The notes beneath the pieces are model-generated. The model searched no databases. It saw only the letters and a program-made list of their open reading frames with translations, and was not told the origin of the DNA. A program made the translations under genes and the position numbers. Below, piece after piece: positions 1 to 13,666 of a stretch of 64,000 nucleotides of DNA (positions are counted from its first letter, which is position 1; every line of letters starts with the position of its first letter). Origin of the DNA: Bythopirellula sp. (GTDB taxonomy: Bacteria; Planctomycetota; Planctomycetia; Pirellulales; Lacipirellulaceae); contig OZ244170.1 of assembly GCA_965216565.1 (NCBI GenBank), positions 416,001-480,000 on the forward strand. The letters run 5' to 3'.

Positions 1-445
1 CTGCTACTACTAGCTTTGCAGGAACCAGTTCAGAGCCACCTTTGCCAATACGTGCATACGCAACATTATCTTCTATATATTTTACCGCACGTCTTACGGC
101 AGCTAAGTGAGCTTTCTGTAGTTTAGTTCGGGCATCCGGCTCCAGCTGTGCCCAAAGGACACTCACAGACTTAGGAGCGGAGAAGGTGAGATCCCAGCCT
201 GGTTTTCGCTCTAGTTTGCCACTAGTTTTACCAGCGTTTTGAACCAACGCTTTACCCTCTGGGGAAAAGCCTCGCATTAGCTGCTTTAGCTGCTCAGGCT
301 CAACTGTGCCACCTAGCTTCAGATGTCTACACCCTTCCCCTAGCCAACGGCCTTCAGGTTCACCACCTTCAAGGTAGTAATCCTCGACCGCTAGCGAGAG
401 ATAATACTTTTCTCCGCCTAGCGACATGTGAGAAATCGAAAGCAT
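1..445 (-). CDS. mobF: MobF/TrwC-family conjugative relaxase, N-terminal part (runs off the window start)
   Basis: Manual translation from ATG at 445 gives MLSISHMSLGGEKYYLSLAVEDYYLEGGEPEGRWLGEG...RKPGWDLTFSAPKSVSVLWAQ, with the YY/DYY catalytic tyrosines and DLTFSAPKSVS motif of TrwC/TraI. Not in the ORF track because it is truncated. Confidence 0.93.
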   Translation of the reverse strand, partial: MLSISHMSLGGEKYYLSLAVEDYYLEGGEPEGRWLGEGCRHLKLGGTVEPEQLKQLMRGFSPEGKALVQNAGKTSGKLERKPGWDLTFSAPKSVSVLWAQLEPDARTKLQKAHLAAVRRAVKYIEDNVAYARIGKGGSELVPAKLVVA

Positions 446-454
446 CTCTTCTAA

Positions 455-958
455 CTACTTTTCTGGTGGTGCCGACCTCCTGGTCTTCTTAGGTACAGCG
501 GCATCTGCCATTGATGCTGCCATCGCTATCCATTCTTGCTGTGGTTTCTTCTCGTACGCTGCTGGTCGCAGGTGTTTTAACAGGGTAAATAATGCTCTTC
601 CTAAGTCCCCCCTAGAAATTAGATTTTCAGCATCAGGAGTCTGAGACTGATTCCGAGGTTCAGCATCCTGAAGCTTCACTAAACCAGTTATTACAGCCTC
701 AGCGTGGGACTTCTGAACTTTGCGAAGGGACTCCTGCTCTCGTCGGATTTGAACAACATCATCAAACAATTGTTCAAACTGGTCTCTGACGGCCTTAACT
801 TCATGGAAGAGCTGGCTATCTTGCTCATCTTCTAGAAGATGGCTACTCATGATCTGCTCTGTGTATTTAGTCTTTGACAGGCCTGCAGCAGCAGCCCGTT
901 TTAGGAGGATATTGTGAGCATCTTCTGGGAGTCGATATGAGGTTGAGTGGGATGCCAT
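455..958 (-). CDS. Relaxosome accessory protein, ribbon-helix-helix-like N-terminus plus coiled coil (TrwA/MobC-like)
   Basis: TSYRLPEDAHNILLKRAAAAGLSKTKYTEQIM has RHH pattern; stop lies 9 bp upstream of the relaxase ATG; ATG at 958 chosen (track start 967). Confidence 0.6.
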   Translation of the reverse strand: MASHSTSYRLPEDAHNILLKRAAAAGLSKTKYTEQIMSSHLLEDEQDSQLFHEVKAVRDQFEQLFDDVVQIRREQESLRKVQKSHAEAVITGLVKLQDAEPRNQSQTPDAENLISRGDLGRALFTLLKHLRPAAYEKKPQQEWIAMAASMADAAVPKKTRRSAPPEK

Positions 959-967
959 GCTGCACAC

Positions 968-1360
968 CCTGTATACGCCTAGAAAATAGGGATATTCTTA
1001 GTGAAGAGGACTATTCTGTGTGCAAGTTGCACCCAGCCTAAACCTAACCAATAGCGAAGCATGCGACAAGAATGTAAACAAAAAGCGGTACCGTAGGTGC
1101 ATTCAGGTGTGGAGTATTCTGTGAGTGAAACGAGCAGAATACTCAGTTAGGCAATTGGCAGTGGAGGTGCCAATTGCAGTGCCGAGCAAGGATTGTGAGG
1201 CACGTAAGCTAAGGCTGATATGGAGGCCAGAGGAGGGGAGTTCCAGGCCTTCAGAGTGGGGCTCTGAAGGCCTGATTAACTGTGGGCCAATGAAGACAAA
1301 GACATGAGTATAGGGTGCGTAAGGGGGCAAGCTAGAGCTAGCAACGGAGTGCCTATGGGC
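968..1360. promoter_or_regulatory. Candidate oriT region
   Basis: Apparently non-coding gap directly upstream of the RHH-relaxase operon; inverted repeats GTGCAAgTTGCAC (~1020-1032), GAGTATTCTG..CAGAATACTC (1112-1144) and AGGCCTTCAGAG..CTCTGAAGGCCT (~1245-1273). The nic site was not identified. Confidence 0.5.
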
Positions 1361-1363
1361 TAG

Positions 1364-1807
1364 CTATCTGGGGCGAGCTGGAGCAGTTGAGTCGGCAAGT
1401 TCAGCTAAGCTATAGGAGCCGCCGTCATTGGCAAATTCTGGCTCAGAGAGTGCCTCAGTAAACCTTAGTGAGAGCCCCATTTTGGATTTGCCCTGGCTAG
1501 TGATGATTTCTTCTACCTTGGGCTTTAGCTCATCTTCTGTGAAGTTTTCACCATTAGCAAGCAAGGCCGAGATAGCTTCTACGACATCCTTCCTAGTAGG
1601 AGACGGCTTACCAGGGGAACGCTTCTTCCTACTCCCCGCCGTTTTCTTAATCGGCTTAGAGCTTAAAGCTGCAACACCTTCCTCAATTTGTGTTAGCTCC
1701 ACTAGAAGCTCACCCTCACGGGCTTTAACTTCCGTAAGCTCCGACAGTAGTCGCTCTCGTTCCTTCTCAAGCATAGACACTGCATCATCAATTACCTTAG
1801 TAGCCAT
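1364..1807 (-). CDS. Hypothetical protein (coiled coil, basic linker, possible winged-helix C-terminus)
   Basis: ATG 1807 with GAGGAG RBS; heptad N-terminus, KKTAGSRKKR linker, helical C-domain. Confidence 0.6.
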   Translation of the reverse strand: MATKVIDDAVSMLEKERERLLSELTEVKAREGELLVELTQIEEGVAALSSKPIKKTAGSRKKRSPGKPSPTRKDVVEAISALLANGENFTEDELKPKVEEIITSQGKSKMGLSLRFTEALSEPEFANDGGSYSLAELADSTAPARPR

Positions 1808-1965
1808 GAGATTAGGCTCCTCAGAAATAGGAGTAGGTGGCTTTGGTTTGGGAACAATTTCAGTGTAGTTAGGGGGATTGGTAATGAGAAGTAGCAAGAG
1901 TGCTATTAAAGGAAAATAATCGAAAGGGGAGGGAAGCCTCGCGGCCTCCCTCGGAACTAACTGAT

Positions 1966-2253
1966 TTAAGCAAGCAAGCCCATATTGCGAAGCATTCGCC
2001 GTACGCTGAGTGGATTTAGTCCAAAGAACTCACACACCACCTCAAAGGCAAGTGGTTCATTACTATTTGATTGAAACCAATCAACAGCCGACTGAAAGGC
2101 CTTTCCATGTTTAAAAGCTAGGTCACGCACAGCCCTATCAGTCACCCGAACCAGCAATTTATGTTCTGGTAGGCTGGGGCCTTTAAAGTGAATTGCCTCT
2201 AAGATGGTTAATGTACTTTCATGAAGGTCTAGTTTTTCTTGGGCTCCTACCAT
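1966..2253 (-). CDS. Hypothetical protein
   Basis: 95 aa ORF overlapping the upstream stop; AVRDL...DWF...FEVVCEFFGLNP pattern resembles mobile-element hypotheticals. Confidence 0.55.
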   Translation of the reverse strand: MVGAQEKLDLHESTLTILEAIHFKGPSLPEHKLLVRVTDRAVRDLAFKHGKAFQSAVDWFQSNSNEPLAFEVVCEFFGLNPLSVRRMLRNMGLLA

Positions 2254-2564
2254 TTCAACATACCTCCCAATAGAGCTAGGTTGCGAAGGCGAGAACCAAC
2301 AGTGTGCAACTTCTCGGCTACGCCCTTACAAAGAGCCTGGAAGTACAAAGAACGGACAAGCTTACAAACGGCACCTATAGAGCAATAAAGAGAATCATAT
2401 AGCTCCGTAAGTTGGCTATTGAACTCATGGCAGACCTGAGCATTCAGGTCACCTATATAGCGATGAAAATCAATCTCTGTCTCATAGGCTAGTTGTATTT
2501 CAGCTAGTTGCCGCTGAAGTTCTTCTTGTAGTACTGCGAGATGTTCTCCTGAATATTGATGCAT
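2247..2564 (-). CDS. Small helical hypothetical protein, paralog of 2615-2920
   Basis: AGGAG RBS; shares EI.xHRxxGxLxAxxC with the neighbouring gene. Confidence 0.6.
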   Translation of the reverse strand: MHQYSGEHLAVLQEELQRQLAEIQLAYETEIDFHRYIGDLNAQVCHEFNSQLTELYDSLYCSIGAVCKLVRSLYFQALCKGVAEKLHTVGSRLRNLALLGGMLKW

Positions 2565-2570
2565 AGTAGA

Positions 2571-2617
2571 TACTCCTAAAAAAAGTGGCTGGGTAAATCC
2601 CAGCCAGATATTGCTTA
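2571..2617. repeat. Intergenic hairpin/RBS repeat, copy 1
   Basis: TACTCC..GGCTGGG-loop-CCCAGCCAGxTATTGCTTA, similar to 2925-2978. Confidence 0.8.
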
Positions 2618-2920
2618 GCCTCTTAGAACTAACCTGCTAACCAAGTGCTTTCGTAAGTCAATCATGGCCTCAGTTACCACACGCAACACAAACCTGCGTG
2701 AAATAACAAGGGCCTTAGACTTTATCTCCTTGCTTGATTTCTGCAGAAGGTTGTGGACACCAAAGAGTTCTTTTTTTAGCCTTCTGCAAGTAAAGGCATC
2801 TAGTGAGCCTTGAACCCTATGGCGTTCTATCTCACCCTCTACCGAATGAAGAATGCCTAAAAGCTCGTGCTCAACTGAAGCTATCTGGCGACGTAAATGG
2901 ATTATGTTTTCTCTGTTCAT
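2615..2920 (-). CDS. Small helical hypothetical protein, paralog of 2247-2564
   Basis: AAGGAG RBS; EGEIERHRVQGSLDAFTC vs ETEIDFHRYIGDLNAQVC. Confidence 0.6.
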   Translation of the reverse strand: MNRENIIHLRRQIASVEHELLGILHSVEGEIERHRVQGSLDAFTCRRLKKELFGVHNLLQKSSKEIKSKALVISRRFVLRVVTEAMIDLRKHLVSRLVLRG

Positions 2921-2924
2921 CGAA

Positions 2925-2978
2925 TACTCCTTAAGAAAGTAAAGAAGGCTGGGCCGAAACCCAGCCAGGTATTGCTTA
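2925..2978. repeat. Intergenic hairpin/RBS repeat, copy 2
   Basis: TACTCC..GGCTGGGccgaaaCCCAGCCAGGTATTGCTTA. Confidence 0.8.
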
Positions 2979-3371
2979 GGCGGTTACATCTGAAGGTGCT
3001 ACGTAGGCCGAACCAGCAAGAGAAGTATCCACTGATGGAGGTAGCTGTTGTGGACTAAGCTTATTCTTTAGCTCTCTAATCTTTTCCTTGGCTTTGTAAG
3101 CAGCCTCAATCACCTCATCTAGCTCATCCTCAGAGACAGAACAGGGCTTGAACTGCCCTGTGTTCTCATCCTTGTACCAACGAACAATAGGTGAGGCCTT
3201 GTAGTAGACAGAGCCATCTTGCTTGTTGATGTTCTCAAAGATTCTCACCTTAAAGCGGCCTACTTTGACAAAAGGCGTTTCCCCTGTCGCTTGTCCCGCT
3301 TCGCCTCTTCCATTATCAGCTAGACCGTTGTTTGAGTTTTTCTCTGCTGGGTTCTTCTGCGTATTTGTCAT
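2976..3371 (-). CDS. Putative ssDNA-binding protein (PC4/SpoVG-like topology)
   Basis: ATG 3371 with GGAG RBS; beta-strands KVGRFKVRIFEN..VYYKAS..RWYKDENTGQFK followed by a helix and an unstructured tail. The fold is inferred. Confidence 0.45.
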   Translation of the reverse strand: MTNTQKNPAEKNSNNGLADNGRGEAGQATGETPFVKVGRFKVRIFENINKQDGSVYYKASPIVRWYKDENTGQFKPCSVSEDELDEVIEAAYKAKEKIRELKNKLSPQQLPPSVDTSLAGSAYVAPSDVTA

Positions 3372-3629
3372 GGTGAATTCTCCAATAAAATAAATAAAAG
3401 GTTTCATCTTCATGCGAGTTGAAAAGCGGGCCTGTTCTGGCTGTCAACAATTTTCGGCGGAGCGTAGCGAGCACTAAAAATGTTGAAGGCAACGATTAGA
3501 AGTAGCTGCCGCCAGCCAAAGAACAGGTCTGCTCAACTTGAGCAGTGAAAGGGAAACTTTTCTTTATGGAGAAGGAGGAAGTGGCAAATACCTAGAGAAG
3601 CCAGGTGAACAGGAAAAACTCAAACAATG
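3326..3629 (+). promoter_or_regulatory. ~300 nt imperfect inverted repeat, candidate ssDNA promoter (Frpo/ssi-like)
   Basis: 3326-3342 pairs with 3613-3629 and 3425-3443 with 3513-3533, with further arms between; apical GGAGCGTAGCGAGC; several mismatches are G.T on the + strand. Confidence 0.7.
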
Positions 3630-3773
3630 GGCACTCCAACCGCTTTTGTCTCCTCGTACGGTGATCTATCGAGTGGCTAGCAAGAAGATGCACCGATTAG
3701 AACTGCCTGGTGGATTGGTAGGTTCAAATTATGCGATGCATATTTTGAAGAGGTATGCATCTCACTCGCTGGG

Positions 3774-4136
3774 TTACCACCAAGAGTCATAGTAAACCAC
3801 GAGCCCATTTGAGATTGCTTTCCGAGCTTTAGCAATGAAATGTAAGTCATCCTCAATTTCAGTGCCGTCAGATATGCCAAAGAAGAACCCTGATGTCCAT
3901 GGAAGTCGTGATGATTTAATGTCCGACTCTAATCTTCCAAGGTCTTTAATCGTTAAGGCGACTTTTGCACAGTTAAACTGCTTAATGCCGCCTTTCTCAT
4001 AGTAAAGTTCCTCCATCCATCCGTGGAGGTCAGGGTGCTTTCGCCACTCGTGAAGACAGCGGTGCGGCTCAACATCAAAGTCCACTTCGTCAGTAATAAC
4101 ATCGGATGTTGTCCATGCGTACATATCAAGTCCCAT
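3774..4136 (-). CDS. Conserved phage/plasmid hypothetical protein (MGLDMY...WRKHPDLHGWME...YYDSWW family)
   Basis: Recognisable motif set; GGAGG RBS. Confidence 0.7.
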   Translation of the reverse strand: MGLDMYAWTTSDVITDEVDFDVEPHRCLHEWRKHPDLHGWMEELYYEKGGIKQFNCAKVALTIKDLGRLESDIKSSRLPWTSGFFFGISDGTEIEDDLHFIAKARKAISNGLVVYYDSWW

Positions 4137-4316
4137 TTATTTCCTCCAAAAAAGTTTTGTCCTTACACCCACCGGGTGAGGACAAAACTAGAATCGAGGA
4201 CGCGAGCTTAGCGTGAGCTATTTGGAAATGGCGAGGTAGGGGAGAGAGCCATCGCATAGTCAATGAGAAGGGTTAGCACTAAAAACGAACTATGCCAGAA
4301 CCGTTTAGGCTACAAG

Positions 4317-4624
4317 ACAGAGAAAGCAACACGGAGTGAGCATCGAGCCGTGGCGGTTGCTATTGCAATGAAGCTGCCTTTTCGCAGTTAGGCGACCCAT
4401 TTTCATCGATAATGGTTTGAGCGAACCGTTATAGGTCCCCCCAGAAATGTCGTGCTCTGAAATCGCGAAGTATTAAACGAGCCTGGAACCATGTCAGTAG
4501 TGCTAAATAGCTGCACATGATCTGAACCAAAGCGACCATAGAGGATAGCTCCACAAATAAGAAGGACGAGATAGGCCCTAAGTTCCCGCTCAGCATTTGC
4601 TATTGCCTGAGTATTCACCTCCAT
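4317..4624 (-). pseudogene. Degenerate duplicate of 5198-5508 (frameshifted paralog plus downstream hairpin)
   Basis: Aligns by eye over ~310 bp with 5198-5508; YGRFGSDHVQLF vs YGRFDSVDVQLF, then a small deletion near 4485 shifts the frame. Confidence 0.75.
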
Positions 4625-4671
4625 TCGTATTCAATTCAACGTGAATTCCTACTTTTTTAGTCTCTCCCCTA

Positions 4672-4998
4672 TTAACTTGCATCATTAACAAGAGCTTTCT
4701 TTTCGTCTAGGAATTCTTGGGCAAGGGTTTCGAGTGCCATCCAGCAGTCGCAGTCTGAATACTCCTTCTCAATACACCGAGCGATTCGCTGCATGTCATC
4801 GTCAGTAAATGTTCGAGCGTCGTCTTTCGATAATACGCACAGCAGATCATTCCGGCAGAGGGACGAAATCTCAAATGGCTTGCTCCAAAAATGCACTTCA
4901 TCTGATACCGGCGAGGGTTTGCGGGTGGCAGCATCAGTGATTGCATCGATAGTTGCTTCTTCACTTTGGCTATTTTCCGTTAGTTTTTTAGTGGCCAT
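4672..4998 (-). CDS. Small acidic hypothetical protein, paralog of 5251-5508
   Basis: GAGGAG RBS; SLCRNDL..FTDDDMQRIAR..W..LETLAQEFLDEKK matches SICRADL..FTYPDMLRLAR..WNDLERFAQTILDEKK. Confidence 0.7.
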   Translation of the reverse strand: MATKKLTENSQSEEATIDAITDAATRKPSPVSDEVHFWSKPFEISSLCRNDLLCVLSKDDARTFTDDDMQRIARCIEKEYSDCDCWMALETLAQEFLDEKKALVNDAS

Positions 4999-5250
4999 TT
5001 AATACTCCTCAATTGGATATCAATGTTTGCCCTTCTAGGTGATGTAGTTTTCATTTTGCAGTTCCTAAATAAGAATAGTCCTTTCGCCTCTTGGGGAAGG
5101 ACTATTCTGCCTAATAAGTCGGATACGATGCTGGAGAGCATTTCATTATTATGGTGAGAATCAAGGAACGACGTTGCATAGCAATGCACGTTAAAGAACA
5201 GAGAAAGCAACACGGAGTGAGGCATCGAGCCGTGGCGGTTGCTATTTCGA

Positions 5251-5508
5251 TTAAGCTGCCTCTTTGAAGTTAGGCGACTTTTTTTCATCGAGTATGGTTT
5301 GTGCGAACCGTTCTAGGTCGTTCCAGAAATGCCGTGCTCTGTAGGCATCGTGCATTAAACGAGCCAAGCGAAGCATATCGGGATAGGTAAACAGCTGCAC
5401 ATCAACCGAATCAAAGCGACCATAAAGATCAGCTCTGCAAATCGAAATCACCGGATAGGCTTTAAGCTCAATTTCAACGTCTGTTGCTGCCTGAGTATCT
5501 TTCTTCAT
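5251..5508 (-). CDS. Small hypothetical protein, paralog of 4672-4998
   Basis: GGGAG RBS; paralogy as above. Confidence 0.7.
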   Translation of the reverse strand: MKKDTQAATDVEIELKAYPVISICRADLYGRFDSVDVQLFTYPDMLRLARLMHDAYRARHFWNDLERFAQTILDEKKSPNFKEAA

Positions 5509-5541
5509 CGTTCACTCCCAAATTACAGTCGCTCCGCGTCG

Positions 5542-6216
5542 CTATTTCTTTCTTTTCCGAAGCACAAGGCATACATCATGAACTCTCGGTATGAATGAGA
5601 AATGATACGTGCGGTTAGTGGAAGTAGCTCCGTGACTAAGCCGAATAATCTCTGGACACGCCAGCTCAAGCCCTACTTGTGTTGCTACACACCACGTGCG
5701 AAATGGAAGGGCATCGTAAGAGCCTCGGCAGGTTCTATCACCAATTAGAATTGCAATATGGCCGTATGGAGAAAGCGTGTCTGCACAATTTTGTAAGACT
5801 GCTTTTAGTTTTACTAGAAACGAGTTCACGTCTTTGCAGCGAGACAAACATCTTGGGTCATCTTGGTACTTGATCAAAGTGTGATAGGGAGGGTGAAGCC
5901 ACACCATATCAAACTCTAGTAAGCCACTAAAGCTACTTGGCTCAGCTGCATCAAAGTCATCTTTTAAGTCAAATCCTTGATAGCGAATATCGAGAGACTC
6001 TGCGACATCCCGTGCAGTGCCTCCCCCTTGCATTGGGTCAAGTAGGTTTCGAGGTTTGAAGTAGTTGAGTAGGTCTCTAATCAGGAGCCCCGAACAATTA
6101 CCGCGATAACTTGGGTCGCCAAAATCACCTCTACCTTCTTCAGCATGGATACTGCATAGCGTTGGAACAGGGCTTGTAGTATTCGGAATTTCAAGAGGGA
6201 CTGTTAGTGTCGTCAT
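5542..6216 (-). CDS. Orphan amino (N4-C/N6-A) DNA methyltransferase
   Basis: Motif I DPMQGGGT before motif IV HPPY; YRGNCSG N-terminal motif; ATG 6216 with GGAGA RBS; no cognate endonuclease adjacent. Confidence 0.8.
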   Translation of the reverse strand: MTTLTVPLEIPNTTSPVPTLCSIHAEEGRGDFGDPSYRGNCSGLLIRDLLNYFKPRNLLDPMQGGGTARDVAESLDIRYQGFDLKDDFDAAEPSSFSGLLEFDMVWLHPPYHTLIKYQDDPRCLSRCKDVNSFLVKLKAVLQNCADTLSPYGHIAILIGDRTCRGSYDALPFRTWCVATQVGLELACPEIIRLSHGATSTNRTYHFSFIPRVHDVCLVLRKRKK

Positions 6217-6393
6217 AGGGTATATCTCCAAAAAAATGTTTGTCCTTTTGCCCTTTTGCAAAGGACAAACATTTACCGCTACCCGTAACAACTATGAGAA
6301 AAGCGAAATGGGCGTGTTATGCAACACGTGTGTACTAGCCAGCATAATGCTGATGTAGGGCCAGCTTGAAATGACGAAGCTGAGCAAGGCGTT

Positions 6394-6825
6394 ATGGAGG
6401 ATGCTATGCAGGTCTTAAAAGGCACAAAAGGAAGTGAGTCTCGGCGGGACGATTCAACGCGAGCCGTAGAGCCTAAGGGGACTGCCGTTGAAGGGGCACT
6501 GTTTGAGCGGCTAACTGAAAGTAAAATTGGAGACCTTATGTGCGAGGGACGATGCCTAAGGGACTACATATCTCATCAAACAAGTGATGGAATCTCAGTT
6601 GTGACTGATAGTGATTTGATGATTTTCTTACACGGGGAGCAGAATTGGTTCCGTGTCGATTTCGATGAAACAGCGGCTGACATCAATGATTGGGTAAAGA
6701 AAAACGACGGGTTCTACTACGAGTATTCAGCACCGAGTTACCAGGGGCAGGGGCATCGTGACACAGCGATTGCAGAGGCCCGCGAACAAGGTAGAAAAGT
6801 TGTCGTGATTTGCAATTTAGGCTAA
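6394..6825 (+). CDS. Hypothetical protein (start uncertain)
   Basis: 143 aa ORF; its 5' part overlaps a structured region, so the true start may be downstream. Confidence 0.35.
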   Translation: MEDAMQVLKGTKGSESRRDDSTRAVEPKGTAVEGALFERLTESKIGDLMCEGRCLRDYISHQTSDGISVVTDSDLMIFLHGEQNWFRVDFDETAADINDWVKKNDGFYYEYSAPSYQGQGHRDTAIAEAREQGRKVVVICNLG

Positions 6826-6845
6826 TCGCCGGAGAGTCGCGTTGC

Positions 6846-9071
6846 TTATTTACTAAGCTGAAAAGCACCTGGCACTTCTTTTCCAGCTCGCTCAGCATCC
6901 GAGACGTGATGAAAGGTTAGATAAGCCTTCTTATCTTTTCGATTGATTTTGAGCAACGTTCCATACTCACGATATTGGTCAAAGATAGTTCCGAGAGTAG
7001 GATTCGAGTTGCCAAGTGGCACACCTACGCAATGGGGCCTTGGTAGTTTCTGGTGATAACCGAGCACGTGCGGTTTGATATTTTTATTTGAGCCCATAGT
7101 CATACCGTAGGTGACGATGGCTGCTTTTTCTGCGTCACGGGAACGTTGGAAAGTAACGTATGAAGAGGCGAGATCTGGTGAGTCTCTATCCTTTACTAAG
7201 TTTATCTCATCAATCACGCCGAATCGGCCAAGCTCATCTCGTAGTAGATCTTCAGTGACATCGGGAGGAAGTTTATGAATACAAATGCAACTGCGAGTGG
7301 AATGAATAACAGAGAGACGATGTTGGGCACGTGAGGCAGCAAGATACCAATAGGTTTTGGGACTTCCTTTGAGTCTCGAAGGATGTTGGTAGTCAATAAC
7401 GATGATGCAATCAGCTTCTAAACCTTTGACCTGCCCGCCAACTAAATACCGCACTTGGGTATTGTTGCGGGGACGAGAAGCTTCTACTAGTTGTGGATTC
7501 TTGAGTGTGCTAAGCGATGTATCTTTAAGGGGTCTTCGTCCGACTACTAGTATTTGCGATGAGAGAAATCCTTGCTCTTGATAATGTTTTAGGTGTGCAG
7601 CTAATGCATGTCGTTGGTCGCACGGGTCAACTTCGTCTTCAAGAGGGGGCTCACCAGCAGGGGCGTCATCGTTGGGTCGCGACTCAACATTGACGGCCTC
7701 ATAAATGTAGCGAGCAATGGCCTTTGTATTGCGGTAGTTCTTATCCCATTTCATTCGAAACATGTCGGGAGGTAAACTAAGTCTATCTCGATAAGATTGT
7801 TTGCCCTGAAAAAAGAACTGGCGAAAGTTCTGGTCAGGGTCGTAAAATATACACAGACGACCATTTTTACCGTGTTTTAGTAGCAATGGGTCTTCAATTA
7901 GTGTCCACCAATCGTTCTCAAAATCCTGCCCTTCGTCGATTATGATCTGATCGTATGTTGTGTAAGGAGTGCCTTCTCGCTGCAATGAGTCGAGACATTC
8001 GTAACAGAGCATAAGCGCCTGAGTGGAGTAAAACTCTCTAAGTTCACCTGGGTCATCAGGTTCAATCCATTCGCTTGCTCTTCCAGCGGCGGTGATGACT
8101 GCTTTACAGAAAGTATGGAATGAAAATACGTCAACATACTTACAGCCAGAAAGTTGTGAGGCAATCCACTCTGCAAGATTCTGGTTGAAGGTAAGGAATA
8201 GAACTCGCTCAGCTTTTTTATTTAGCTCATGTGCATAAGAGAGGGCAGCGACTGTTTTACCTGACCCCGCAACTCCCTGTATCAATCGACGAGGTTCATC
8301 AATGGCGTATAGAAAGTCCTCCACCCTTTGTTTGAGTGAGCCGAATCGTTCTTTTTCAACTGATACGGGGTCGGGAGCAGTCTCTAAGGTCCAATCACCT
8401 AGTAGAGCGGTCTTAACGAGATTGAATTCATCTCGGGTAAGCGGTTGTGGCATCGGTTTGTTGAAGTAGCGATAAGCACCACGTATCCAGCCCTCAAAGC
8501 TTTCTTGGCTATTTGCATCTTCGTGCAGCATCGTTATGGCAAGGTCACCTGCTGAGCCCACTGATTGGTACTTTATGGCAATCTCTGATTGAACGGCGGG
8601 GTCGGTGAATGACTTTTGGCTCTCTAAGGCAAATTCCCGAGACCGAGTTTGCCTCACATTGGGCAGTGCAATAGCGAAACCGTGTGGGACACCGCGTGTT
8701 CTAAACCACGCCCGTCCCTTACCAAGTGTTGCCATGTATTGGTTGATCTTGGTAATAAACCCAAACTTCGTTGTGGCTGCTTGTTTGAATGGGTCTTTTT
8801 CTAAGGGATGCTCATTCTGATACCAACTACCATCTTTACACCTTACAAAGCCTGTTTTTGCCTCAACTAAAAGAAGTCCCAATTGCCGGTGCAGGAGTAA
8901 GAAGTCTGCTTCTCCGTCTCGTAGGCGGTCACTATGGTCTGGAAACAAGACCTGCTGGCTATGGAGCACAAGAAACTCATCGCTAAGAGCGTTCTCAAAT
9001 ACAGGAAATAGGAGCCTCTCAGCATGGCTGCCTGAGGAGTGTATGTACTCCTTTGGAATCATACGAGCCAT
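6846..9071 (-). CDS. NERD nuclease - SF1 (UvrD-like) helicase - tandem RRM-like fusion protein
   Basis: GEADFLLL..LVEAKTG (NERD), GVAGSGKT, IIIDEGQDF, KNYRNT, VKGLEAD, YLAASRA; C-terminal IHKLPPDVTEDLLRDELGRFGVIDEINL..YVTF and YGTLLKI..AYLTF (RRM-like). Confidence 0.85.
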   Translation of the reverse strand: MARMIPKEYIHSSGSHAERLLFPVFENALSDEFLVLHSQQVLFPDHSDRLRDGEADFLLLHRQLGLLLVEAKTGFVRCKDGSWYQNEHPLEKDPFKQAATTKFGFITKINQYMATLGKGRAWFRTRGVPHGFAIALPNVRQTRSREFALESQKSFTDPAVQSEIAIKYQSVGSAGDLAITMLHEDANSQESFEGWIRGAYRYFNKPMPQPLTRDEFNLVKTALLGDWTLETAPDPVSVEKERFGSLKQRVEDFLYAIDEPRRLIQGVAGSGKTVAALSYAHELNKKAERVLFLTFNQNLAEWIASQLSGCKYVDVFSFHTFCKAVITAAGRASEWIEPDDPGELREFYSTQALMLCYECLDSLQREGTPYTTYDQIIIDEGQDFENDWWTLIEDPLLLKHGKNGRLCIFYDPDQNFRQFFFQGKQSYRDRLSLPPDMFRMKWDKNYRNTKAIARYIYEAVNVESRPNDDAPAGEPPLEDEVDPCDQRHALAAHLKHYQEQGFLSSQILVVGRRPLKDTSLSTLKNPQLVEASRPRNNTQVRYLVGGQVKGLEADCIIVIDYQHPSRLKGSPKTYWYLAASRAQHRLSVIHSTRSCICIHKLPPDVTEDLLRDELGRFGVIDEINLVKDRDSPDLASSYVTFQRSRDAEKAAIVTYGMTMGSNKNIKPHVLGYHQKLPRPHCVGVPLGNSNPTLGTIFDQYREYGTLLKINRKDKKAYLTFHHVSDAERAGKEVPGAFQLSK

Positions 9072-9639
9072 CGGATTTCACCGCGACTAGAGGAAGATTT
9101 GATGGGATATGTGAGAGTAGGGACCGGGATGTTAGCCTAGTCCAATTTAAGCTAAGCCGTTTTAGATAACCAGTAATGTCTGGTTTGAAATCATATGGAA
9201 TTGGGCGATTTACGGAGTCAATGTAGGCAGTGAATTAGCTTCGTTTTGTTAGGGGGCTCAGCCATTTGATATACTGGTCCTTTCTCAGTTCGTCTGTAAT
9301 CAACCATGTTGTATCGCAACATACTGCCTAGTAAATGGTACCAAGTGATTTCCTGCTGCAATTAGTTTAGTTCCTTCCCGAACGGCTCAAAAATCACCGA
9401 CATTATCCACTTTGGTGTGATCTGTATTTACTTAGGAGTGTGCGAAGGAATAGTTGTAATATTGCTCGAAAGCGAGAGAATAGGGGATGCGAGCCGTGGC
9501 TGCTGTGGATGATTATTCCACCTGACGAAATACTTGATTGAGGCAAAGCATGATGGGCGACGAATACGACGTATTGGTCTTATTGGAACACGCGAAACGT
9601 GATGCACTGTTTGGGGTATAGCCTTCGGGGTTCGCACCA

Positions 9640-10458
9640 ATGGAAATAATCGACAACTATAAATACGAGTGTGGAGCAATTGGCGAGAAGGAGTCTGGTA
9701 CGGTTGTCATTAGTGATGTGAATCTGGACTCTCGGGGTCTTCGAGCCGTAGAACACCAACGGTCTGATCAGACATTCTTCTGGGATGTGCCAATAGAACG
9801 AAAAGATATAGTAAGCTCGTTTGACGGCTTACATCCCGACGCATATGGGTTTCGAGACTCGGGAGACGGCGAATACTCTGAGAACGTGCGGGCACTTTAC
9901 GAAGAGTGGGAGCTTGAAGACAGAGTGGAATACACATGGCTGCAAGCAGCGATTAGGTATGAAGTTTTCTCGCACCTTTTGGAAGTTCGGGCACCATGTG
10001 TTGCAAGAACACTTGGTATGATCGCGGAACGACAACGGCATCAGGCTCTTGATATTACTGAAGCCGATTTCTCTGGTGATACGGTACCGCTAGCCGTCGA
10101 TAGAGTGAGAATAGATAAGGCTTTGGCACATCTGCTAAGAATATTTGGTCAAGAGGGTTGTGAAAGGGACCTAATGCGGGTCTCAGATAAGCAATATCGA
10201 CAAGCTATGGCCCAATCAATTGAAGAAGTCGCAGACTCGCTTAGTCCAGAGGCTGCACAAGAGTATGTGGATGCTCTAGCATCCCTGACCGAGGGAATCT
10301 TTCATGGAGAGAAAGAGCCTGATAACTATACTCCAGAATTGCTCTTCCCTCTGATGGAATGTTTGAAAGATCAAGATAAAGTTGTCGATATGACAGAAAT
10401 CGTAAAACACTTGAGCTTAGATTCTTTCACACTGGAATCTCGCAAGAAACGCGATTAA
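9640..10458 (+). CDS. Hypothetical protein (acidic)
   Basis: 272 aa ORF, first of four co-oriented, closely spaced genes. Confidence 0.65.
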   Translation: MEIIDNYKYECGAIGEKESGTVVISDVNLDSRGLRAVEHQRSDQTFFWDVPIERKDIVSSFDGLHPDAYGFRDSGDGEYSENVRALYEEWELEDRVEYTWLQAAIRYEVFSHLLEVRAPCVARTLGMIAERQRHQALDITEADFSGDTVPLAVDRVRIDKALAHLLRIFGQEGCERDLMRVSDKQYRQAMAQSIEEVADSLSPEAAQEYVDALASLTEGIFHGEKEPDNYTPELLFPLMECLKDQDKVVDMTEIVKHLSLDSFTLESRKKRD

Positions 10459-12414: not shown

Positions 12415-13089
12415 CTACTTAGTAGCTGTGCCAAAAAGAACAGCCGATGCCACGCCACTCCCTCGACGACGAAGAAGTATACGCTTTCTGATGAGCCATG
12501 ACTCTTGCTCTATAGCCTCCATGCAAACAGGGTTAAATGCGATCAATTGAATTTCTCTGGGATTGGCTTCAATCGAATCTCTAATGTTATTTAACACACC
12601 ATGCAACGTTGGTCCTCCGAAAGGATTAAAGAAGAAAAAGATTGTTCCCTCCCGTATTTCAAAAGTCGCTGCATCACCATGATGTATTTCAATCTCAGTC
12701 CGTCGCACCCTAAGTCGCCGAGAGTTCTCCTTGGCCTTTTGTGCCCATAATGAATTGTATTCCACACCGTATACTTTTGACAGCTTGTATCTTGCGGCGA
12801 AACAAACAACACGACCAGTGCCACAACCAAAGTCGATCACTACATCGTTATTGCGGAGTAGAAGTCTGGAAAAGAGCTTGAAGAGGATCCAATAAGGAGT
12901 AGCAAGACATTCGAAGCTGTCTGGATGCGATCCCGGCTCTGAATCAATGTCTCTAGTAGATATAGCGTAAAAAGAATCAAGAACAAAGTCGTGTAGACCC
13001 ACGACTAACCTCGCAACGCTACTTATCACCATTTTTCTCCTAAGAACTCTACTTTGCGTTTTTATACATGACTGCCGACACTTCGCCAT
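12415..13089 (-). CDS. Class I SAM-dependent methyltransferase (DOT1-like); start may be ~13031
   Basis: ATPYW, IDFGCGTGRV, GVEYN, GDA, FFFFNPF. Confidence 0.85.
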   Translation of the reverse strand: MAKCRQSCIKTQSRVLRRKMVISSVARLVVGLHDFVLDSFYAISTRDIDSEPGSHPDSFECLATPYWILFKLFSRLLLRNNDVVIDFGCGTGRVVCFAARYKLSKVYGVEYNSLWAQKAKENSRRLRVRRTEIEIHHGDAATFEIREGTIFFFFNPFGGPTLHGVLNNIRDSIEANPREIQLIAFNPVCMEAIEQESWLIRKRILLRRRGSGVASAVLFGTATK

Positions 13090-13666
13090 TTCTTCGTTTT
13101 AAGAGCACTTGTTTTTTATCTAACCAATCTTGCTCCTCAAACTGCGAGAAACAGGCAGGGTTTAGCGCGACAATACGAATAGATCGGGGCCTCTCGTGAA
13201 TCGACAGCCTTATATTCTCTATTACTCTCTTTAGGGTTCCGCCGCCAAAGGGATTAAAAAAGTAAAAAATCGTGCCGTCGATGCAGTCGAATTCGACGGC
13301 ATCCTGCTCAGCAACGACAACTTCTGAACGCCGCTTCTTGAGACGAGTCGCGTTACTTCGTGCTTGAGCTGCCCATCTTGGGTTAAGCTCTACGCCATAA
13401 ACTCTACTAAAGTGCATTCGAGCCGCGAGGCAAATCACTCTCCCTGTCCCCGCCCCAAAATCAACAAAAACATCATTCGGACCCATCACTATTCTGCTTA
13501 GAATTCGTTGGGCTACCCAGTAAGGAGTCGGAAGACATTCAAAGTGTTCCGCAGATTTCGTATTACTACTTTGTAACTCCTCTTCTAGGGTATACACACC
13601 TAGTCGATAATCCATATAGCGATTGTGGTAGCTAACAACCTTTGGATATAGTAAATTTGCTGCCAT
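13049..13666 (-). CDS. Class I SAM-dependent methyltransferase (DOT1-like), paralog of the previous gene
   Basis: PTPYW, VDFGAGTGRV, GVELN, QDA, FYFFNPF. Confidence 0.85.
   Translation of the reverse strand: MAANLLYPKVVSYHNRYMDYRLGVYTLEEELQSSNTKSAEHFECLPTPYWVAQRILSRIVMGPNDVFVDFGAGTGRVICLAARMHFSRVYGVELNPRWAAQARSNATRLKKRRSEVVVAEQDAVEFDCIDGTIFYFFNPFGGGTLKRVIENIRLSIHERPRSIRIVALNPACFSQFEEQDWLDKKQVLLKRRNGEVSAVMYKNAK

Follow-up and report, generated by a model that had tools for sequence, protein, structure and literature searches.

Candidate leading region of a MOBF integrative mobilizable element at a tRNA-Lys gene in a Bythopirellula chromosome

Introduction

The leading regions of plasmids and integrative and conjugative elements (ICEs) carry anti-defence islands, in which methyltransferases, single-stranded DNA-binding proteins (SSBs) and anti-defence genes have a common orientation (Samuel et al. 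2024, PMC11541004). For Planctomycetes, 29 MOBF relaxases have been described in 21 chromosomes (bioRxiv 10.1101/2024.01.22.576637), and the same 2024 plasmidome preprint gives conjugation between planctomycetes as unreported. Here, we analysed a 64,000-nucleotide stretch of a Bythopirellula sp. genome (assembly GCA_965216565.1; hereafter the window), which covers positions 416001-480000 of a single 5.21-Mb contig and begins inside a MOBF relaxase gene. We interpret a block of ten small genes beside this relaxase as the leading region of an integrative mobilizable element, a MOBF element of 158 kb at tRNA-Lys; the genes of the block would be first to enter a recipient, be expressed early and aid establishment, and we give this reading as a whole a probability of roughly 0.7. 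That the block is a leading region is the firmest part and appears very likely; that it serves establishment is probable.

The locus resembles the chromosomal MOBF relaxase and coupling-protein loci of the preprint, which often have a coupling protein and no complete mating-pair system. The term oriT, for the origin of transfer, is absent from the main text of that study, and the element boundaries and nic candidate reported below come from the present analysis.

Results

Ten open reading frames (ORFs) at 1364-6216, all on the minus strand, read toward a gap that we predict to be oriT and adjoin it on the side opposite the relaxase (Table 1). The array ends near 6280, the next ORF (6394-6825) being on the opposite strand. 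A run of 9/10 neighbours on the strand of the first gene has a probability of ~0.002 if genes are independent, a figure that is overstated because of operons. The initial annotation had counted about ten small genes here, and ten were found; they make up eight families, not ten, because o7, o8 and o9 are paralogues. The idea of ten independent novel families was rejected on this ground, o7 being a frameshifted copy of o9. The same annotation had placed a MOBF relaxase and an RHH gene reading away from a structured gap, and this arrangement was recovered: the relaxase is clearly of the TrwC type, the accessory gene gives a weak RHH-type match (RelB-like, E 0.005, far under the cut-off), and the gap (960-1365) folds better than 100/100 shuffled sequences (z -4.1). 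A gene of similar size occupies the accessory slot in several relatives.

On the + strand of the gap lies a nic-like motif that resembles the oriT/nic of the F plasmid (PMC3074121) in its inverted repeat ending TGC and its short spacer ending GGTGT, followed by GG; it differs in its shorter imperfect stem, 3-nt loop and different spacer, and its cut site is predicted from sequence. We infer that the + strand would be the transferred strand, cut at 1110/1111. At nic, the 5' phosphate is where a MOBF relaxase becomes attached (PMC6362355), so this strand would enter from 1111 rightwards. With the motif on the + strand, the transferred strand would be the template of the ten genes, which would enter before the rest of the element. 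A tree of 38 relaxases places that of the window within a 15-member clade (support 100/100). In 11/15 members of this clade (window included), the motif stands 450-820 nt away on the upstream side of the relaxase and on the strand that reads away from it; the motif is found at 1/23 relaxases outside the clade. The genome-wide rate predicts ~0.04 per 2.5-kb region; one shortened relaxase was left out of the count. The F-like motif was not found upstream of most relaxases of other clades. A stricter pattern had 5 matches in 300 genomes of the class, compared with 1 for a reversed control.

Different arrangements were seen at other relaxases. In the sister pair L012 (genome G018) and L015 (genome G012; looser motif match), the nic-like motif is directed toward the relaxase, and the adjacent genes of single-strand-binding type are reversed with it; for these genes, the nicked strand would remain the template, but their entry would come last. 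Another MOBF clade (L017-L023, L184, L188, L195 and L200) conserves another sequence on the upstream side of the relaxase (10-mers in 5/11 loci), which is a second oriT candidate, and o1 homologues precede several of these relaxases. Elsewhere in the Bythopirellula genome, a second MOBF element (G000:C1:4587400-4620000; L003, L004) has the same nic-like motif and the same end repeat. A distance of 18 kb separates its relaxase from its ArdA-like and o5-family genes, and between them are inserted genes that by eye resemble restriction-modification and other defence genes.

The content of the same slot in related loci also points to a leading region. A related relaxase was present in 21/61 genomes searched, and 20 of the 29 matches outside this genome were fetched. 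Beyond oriT, 7/13 clade relatives have ArdA, a methyltransferase or an o5-family gene in the orientation seen in the window: ArdA in L006 and L016, the methyltransferase in L009, and o5-family genes in L006, L008, L009, L011 and L014. None of the profiled families is in the slot of 5/13 relatives, and L196 has them reversed. Both the ArdA and ArdC profiles were self-made, the ArdC profile being verified by Pfam; what we take to be ArdA in the relatives was named by sequence resemblance. Because the contents differ between elements, the slot is a variable cassette.

The relaxase and gene block sit at the left end of an island of 157,841 bp, which runs from 409.3 kb to 567.1 kb of the genome and is flanked by two tRNA-Lys copies. 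One copy lies 7 kb left of the window and the second 158 kb to the right of the first, and they have a 45-bp identical core in common. Short repeats lie just inside both ends, and GC content is 49.7% within the island and 53.7% elsewhere in the genome. The right end carries a tyrosine integrase (E 4e-6, at the cut-off), ParA, ParB, an RPA-like protein and a topoisomerase. After the relaxase come a gene of 155 aa and one for a TrwB-type coupling protein. No VirB4-type ATPase was found in the genome (profiles PF03135 and PF19044; genome 94% complete), and because a coupling protein is present and VirB4 was not found, the element would be mobilizable rather than self-conjugative. With its relaxase, integrase and att repeats, it fits an integrative mobilizable element; a self-transmissible ICE was rejected, since neither PF03135 nor PF19044 revealed a mating-pair system of its own. 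The description of the locus as a conjugative leading region therefore holds in its second half, which the nic-like site on the predicted strand and the ArdA, methyltransferase and o5-family genes in the relatives' slot favour, and has to be changed to mobilizable in its first.

The island also contains insertion-sequence-like ORFs, and near its right end (G000:C1:553700-556400; L002) lie small + strand genes, one of the o5 family, which may be what is left of a second element at this tRNA. Fragments nearly identical to window 1-10000 occur in runs X6, X7 and X8 of two other studies; the same strain and very recent spread are indistinguishable as their source.

Table 1. Features of the predicted leading region and adjoining relaxase side; positions are those of the window.
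Feature	Position	Strand	Basis or remark
MOBF relaxase-helicase, 5' part	1-445	-	TrwC match, E 2.7e-35; full gene a 943-aa TrwC-helicase, genome 413614-416445
RHH-like relaxosome accessory gene (putative)	455-967	-	position and weak match
oriT gap (predicted)	968-1363		several hairpins; folding z -4.1
nic (predicted)	1086-1114	+	short hairpin ending TGC, then ATTCAGGTGT^GG; predicted cut between 1110 and 1111
o1, 147 aa	1364-1807	-	coiled coil, basic linker, helical domain; family beside relaxases; no common Pfam family
o2, orphan, 95 aa	1966-2253	-	no homologue found
o3, orphan, 105 aa	2247-2564	-	no homologue found
Hairpin and T run before o3 ribosome-binding site	2586-2606		upstream region z -3.0
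o4, basic orphan, 101 aa	2615-2920	-	pI 10.9; no homologue found
o5, 131 aa	2976-3371	-	member of a planctomycete mobile-element family
130-nt stem-loop upstream of o5	3415-3545	+	z -3.2; candidate single-strand promoter or priming signal
o6, 120 aa, acidic	3774-4136	-	large family, source name "phosphoglycerate kinase"
Hairpin and T run before o6 ribosome-binding site	4142-4200		z -6.0; arms in common with the 6234-6274 hairpin
o7, frameshifted o9 copy	4403-4624	-	2-nt deletion relative to o9
o8, 108 aa, acidic o9 paralogue	4672-4998	-	sequence comparison
o9, 85 aa, unnamed small family	5251-5508	-	consensus F.ITSVCR.DL...FW.DL
Orphan N6/N4 DNA methyltransferase, 224 aa	5542-6216	-	Pfam E 4e-5; PADLOC MTase_II E 9e-19
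Hairpin and T run before methyltransferase ribosome-binding site	6234-6274		z -4.4

In its place beside oriT opposite the relaxase, its one-directional small genes, its orphan methyltransferase and its many uncharacterised genes, the block resembles the leading-region anti-defence islands of plasmids and ICEs (PMC11541004). It differs from them in having no canonical SSB, no Frpo consensus and no gene recognised as anti-restriction, anti-CRISPR or anti-SOS, and in belonging to a chromosomal element. None of o1-o9 has a significant match in Pfam, PHROG, NCBIfam or PADLOC, and our own ArdA and ArdC profiles match only elsewhere in the genome, not in the block. Neither of the two outcomes that would have refuted the initial annotation was observed: for o1, o5, o6 and the methyltransferase, the homologues are linked to mobile elements and are not ordinary chromosomal genes.

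The block ends in a methyltransferase that had been called an orphan; the family assignment was confirmed, and no restriction enzyme was found among 14 scanned neighbours. It carries the motifs DPMQGGGT and HPPY, which we take to be SAM-binding and catalytic. Homologues occur in 64/301 genomes of the class and in 887 plasmid records, 783 of them typed conjugative; one lies inside a co-oriented ssb-bet-exonuclease block of an IncC plasmid, and another 2 kb upstream of a mobC-relaxase pair on a planctomycete plasmid. At 40 planctomycete loci chosen by score and contig size (flanks of 5 kb upstream and 14 kb downstream), an o5-family gene is co-oriented with the methyltransferase in 20 and opposite in 2, ArdC is co-oriented in 8, and a MOBP relaxase lies downstream and co-oriented in 7.

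Nearest to the gap, o1 probably starts at 1807. It has homologues at seven relaxase loci, plus L230, and at five of the seven, all in a sister clade, the homologue lies 0.6-1.1 kb upstream of the relaxase. Because homologues stand just upstream of relaxases, we favour a role at oriT over one in anti-defence, and o1 is likely a DNA-binding oriT accessory protein or regulator. A word-indexed search gave no homologue of o2, and a plasmid search had no match for o3 or o5 and only E 0.3-0.6 for o4. The o5 family has nine copies in this genome, including an opposite-strand gene near the right end of the island, and recurs beside related relaxases. The proposed SSB-like identity of o5 was not substantiated: neither o5 nor its 25 aligned homologues have a supporting match in Pfam, PHROG or PDB, and "PC4/SSB-like" is a label that we treat as an assumption.

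The paralogues o7, o8 and o9 include a duplicated unit, 4317-4614 being 77% identical to 5198-5498, and the 2-nt deletion in o7 is reproduced without gaps in contigs of two studies. For o9, a word-indexed search returned no homologue, and the family was found only by exhaustive search; Atlas matches (at most 0.81) were set aside as evidence. The o8/o9 family comprises 36 representatives, was located at 54 metagenome and 15 viral loci, and was not found in 300 other genomes of the phylum. It is acidic (median pI 4.59) and occurs in viral contigs and beside housekeeping genes. One of the 69 loci has a replication-relaxation gene and an SSB, and one a homologue of the methyltransferase described here. 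In the related viral contigs L165-L176, o9-family genes belong to a long series of small genes that share one orientation, and a reverse transcriptase, an integrase-like gene and PcfJ accompany them.

The o6 family is large, with 4,692 homologues that several sources name "phosphoglycerate kinase" (PGK). We rejected this name because o6 is 120 aa long and has no PGK match in Pfam, NCBIfam or PDB sequences. A genome scan found 257 loci, and the figures that follow rest on the closest 80, which are partly kin. In these best 80 of 257 loci, a MOBP relaxase lies in the fetched flank of 39; 27 of the 39 have the order o6, mobC/nikA, relaxase on one strand, as in the window, and 1 has the relaxase upstream. 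ArdC is present at 29 of the same 80, and all 30 ArdC genes are on the strand of o6; DUF736, DUF2958 and ParB are also co-oriented with it. These neighbours come from a scan of 50 filtered representatives, where the initial clustering had many shadow ORFs and the clusters counted are those that are Pfam-named or plainly co-oriented.

The o6 protein is acidic (pI 4.96, net charge -8), as is its family (median pI 4.56, median net charge -10), with 16 positions acidic in at least 70% of homologues. Its predicted structure is confident (pLDDT 90.6); a fold made from the single sequence (pLDDT 40) was discarded. The top PDB rows in Foldseek were DMP12 (E 0.32, TM 0.42) and YfbM (E 1.4), neither significant, and a wide structural search gave N-terminal domains of DapD (Z 7.1 and 5.8), YfbM (5.5) and DMP12 (5.0; rmsd 4.0, 94 aa), all under the Z of ~8 that the tool calls the common level. 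Neisseria DMP12, a DNA mimic that binds HU (PMC3643605), and Escherichia coli YfbM resemble o6 in length (~120 aa), acidity and a similar alpha/beta arrangement over 93-94 residues; identity to o6 is 10-16%, with scores below the reliable range of the tools. DMP12 is described as limited to Neisseria and Moraxella (PMC3643605), and relatives of o6 occur in phages and mobile elements. The o6 model matches three uncharacterised phage proteins at E < 0.001, and its nearest Atlas clusters are mostly phage proteins; for a DMP12-like fold, the Atlas score of 0.86 is a lead only. A complex prediction of o6 with a host HU/IHF-family dimer scored 0.15 (mark 0.32) and gave no verdict.

A DNA mimic is a reasonable lead for o6 but an unlikely identity, and no less likely is a small enzyme or metal-binding protein, whose invariant residues would line a pocket instead of making up a charged surface; we regard the latter as a tentative possibility. 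In its favour, H34, H38, C56, W31, W40, W120 and an N-terminal GLD are invariant in 40/40 aligned homologues, and DapD outscores DMP12 in the wide search, while the conserved acidic positions, the family charge and the rank of DMP12 in Foldseek speak for mimicry. The fold searches listed no ArdA, Ocr or similar anti-defence protein, a relation to which is still possible, and PDB sequence searches with the o5, o6 and o9 profiles gave nothing significant. We found no paper that joins the "phosphoglycerate kinase" misannotation, phage, anti-defence and ArdC, and literature on DMP12 and on DNA mimics or leading regions, judged by title or abstract start, held none on the o6 family. Neither planctomycetes nor "phosphoglycerate kinase" is named in the 10 text-searchable supplementary files of PMC11541004.

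Hairpins recur between the genes. Three of the ten upstream regions (o3, o6 and the methyltransferase) fold unusually well, compared with 3% of 150 control regions at z <= -3. The leaders of o3 and o4 are copies of each other, a related copy standing at 2947-2966 before o4. In four hairpins, a T-rich run and then a ribosome-binding site follow on the message strand, which makes them terminator-like and leaves no room for a promoter; candidate roles for these structures are those of single-strand promoters, priming signals or attenuators. None of the other fetched loci has a counterpart of the intergenic hairpins. The loop of the large hairpin holds GAGCGTAGCGAG at 3459-3470 (+), one of three such motifs in the genome, with copies in several mobile loci; similar loops are present in single-strand origins.

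Directly behind the block, 6846-9071 (-) encodes a 741-aa protein with NERD, UvrD-type helicase and RRM parts that matches PADLOC RTasNERD-Hel (E 2e-33) and C3a187 (E 1.5e-23) and is a possible defence gene. Farther along, 12415-13666 (-) holds two tandem paralogous SAM-dependent methyltransferases with weak DOT1-type matches.

Discussion

In the mechanism that we propose, the relaxase would nick the + strand near 1110, and a secretion system borrowed in trans would carry this strand into the recipient, 5' end first. The ten genes, templated by the entering strand, would be first in and expressed early and would help the element establish: the methyltransferase would shield DNA from restriction, o5 might bind single-stranded DNA, o1 might bind DNA near oriT, and o6 might be an acidic decoy that draws off a DNA-binding or restriction protein of the host. 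We give somewhat less than even weight to direct inhibition of a defence system by one or more of o2-o9; only o6 has positive evidence for anti-defence, and that evidence is indirect. The proposal of an anti-defence cassette goes further than the evidence, since the block has no known anti-defence gene, o1 has the look of a DNA-binding protein that sits beside oriT, the o9 family shows no link to relaxases at its loci elsewhere and o2-o4 are orphans.

Several results weigh against a leading region that serves establishment. Pfam, PHROG and NCBIfam reveal no ArdA, ArdC or other named anti-defence gene in the block. The nic pattern was composed after the window and its relatives had been seen, three clade members are without the motif, and L012 has a nearer copy on the other strand. 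Of the five matches of the stricter pattern, only two have a relaxase where one was predicted, a TrwC that lies 450-580 nt to their 5' side and is oriented as expected, with an o1 homologue on the 3' side of one and an o5 homologue on that of the other; the other three have no relaxase in the fetched stretch, one of them being a 4-kb contig. Counts over related loci overstate independence. At the 40 methyltransferase loci, 18/18 TrwC genes lie on the opposite strand from the methyltransferase, so the layout of the window is not the rule for planctomycete MOBF elements; those of the loci that could be placed in the tree belong to other clades, L196 excepted. The relaxase is convergent with o6 at 11 of its 39 loci, and the expected association of the o9 family with relaxases failed to appear, as 0/69 loci have TrwC or a MOBP relaxase by our own profiles (only 29 loci are at least 8 kb). 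Transfer would require a helper. Between the genes, there is no excess of sigma-70 consensus (2 found, 6.6 expected), no Rfam match in the hairpins and no Frpo consensus in a comparison made without known Frpo sequences.

One alternative keeps the block as the first DNA to enter and sees in it mostly a module for DNA processing and regulation, joined by accumulated small cassettes, with no dedicated anti-defence protein apart from the methyltransferase. Here o1 and o4 would bind DNA as regulators and o5 would bind single strands, the hairpins would signal priming or termination, and o2, o3 and o7-o9 would be near-neutral passengers. The o1 homologues upstream of relaxases at the five sister-clade loci, the broken o7, the orphan status of o2-o4, the presence of the o9 family in viral contigs and beside housekeeping genes, and the resemblance to terminators of hairpins followed by T runs all suit this account. 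ArdA in this very slot in two relatives, the tight co-orientation of o6 with ArdC elsewhere and the acidity of both the o6 and o9 families argue against it, and we consider it rather unlikely. Still less likely is an immobile relic or a chimera of tandem islands whose block is no longer transferred: VirB4 was not found, o7 is broken, and the opposite-strand o5-family gene near the right end together with the insertion-sequence-like ORFs suggests accretion, but the relaxase, coupling protein, integrase frame, both att cores and nic-like site are intact.

We thus retain the leading region of a mobilizable element as the best account of the locus. A bolder version would hold both that the o6 family consists of DNA mimics of the DMP12/YfbM fold that disarm host DNA-binding defence proteins alongside ArdC and that the locus is a planctomycete MOBF oriT whose first-entering genes include new counter-defence families (o8/o9 and o2-o4); we think this conjunction improbable.

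The overall architecture is already well known from other phyla, and the useful new leads are the nic candidate and the o6 family. With a nic candidate found across the clade, transfer becomes testable, and a mobilisation tool native to the phylum could follow from it. The o6 family, which is large, mislabelled and associated with ArdC and has a confident predicted structure, is a reasonable entry for counter-defence screens.

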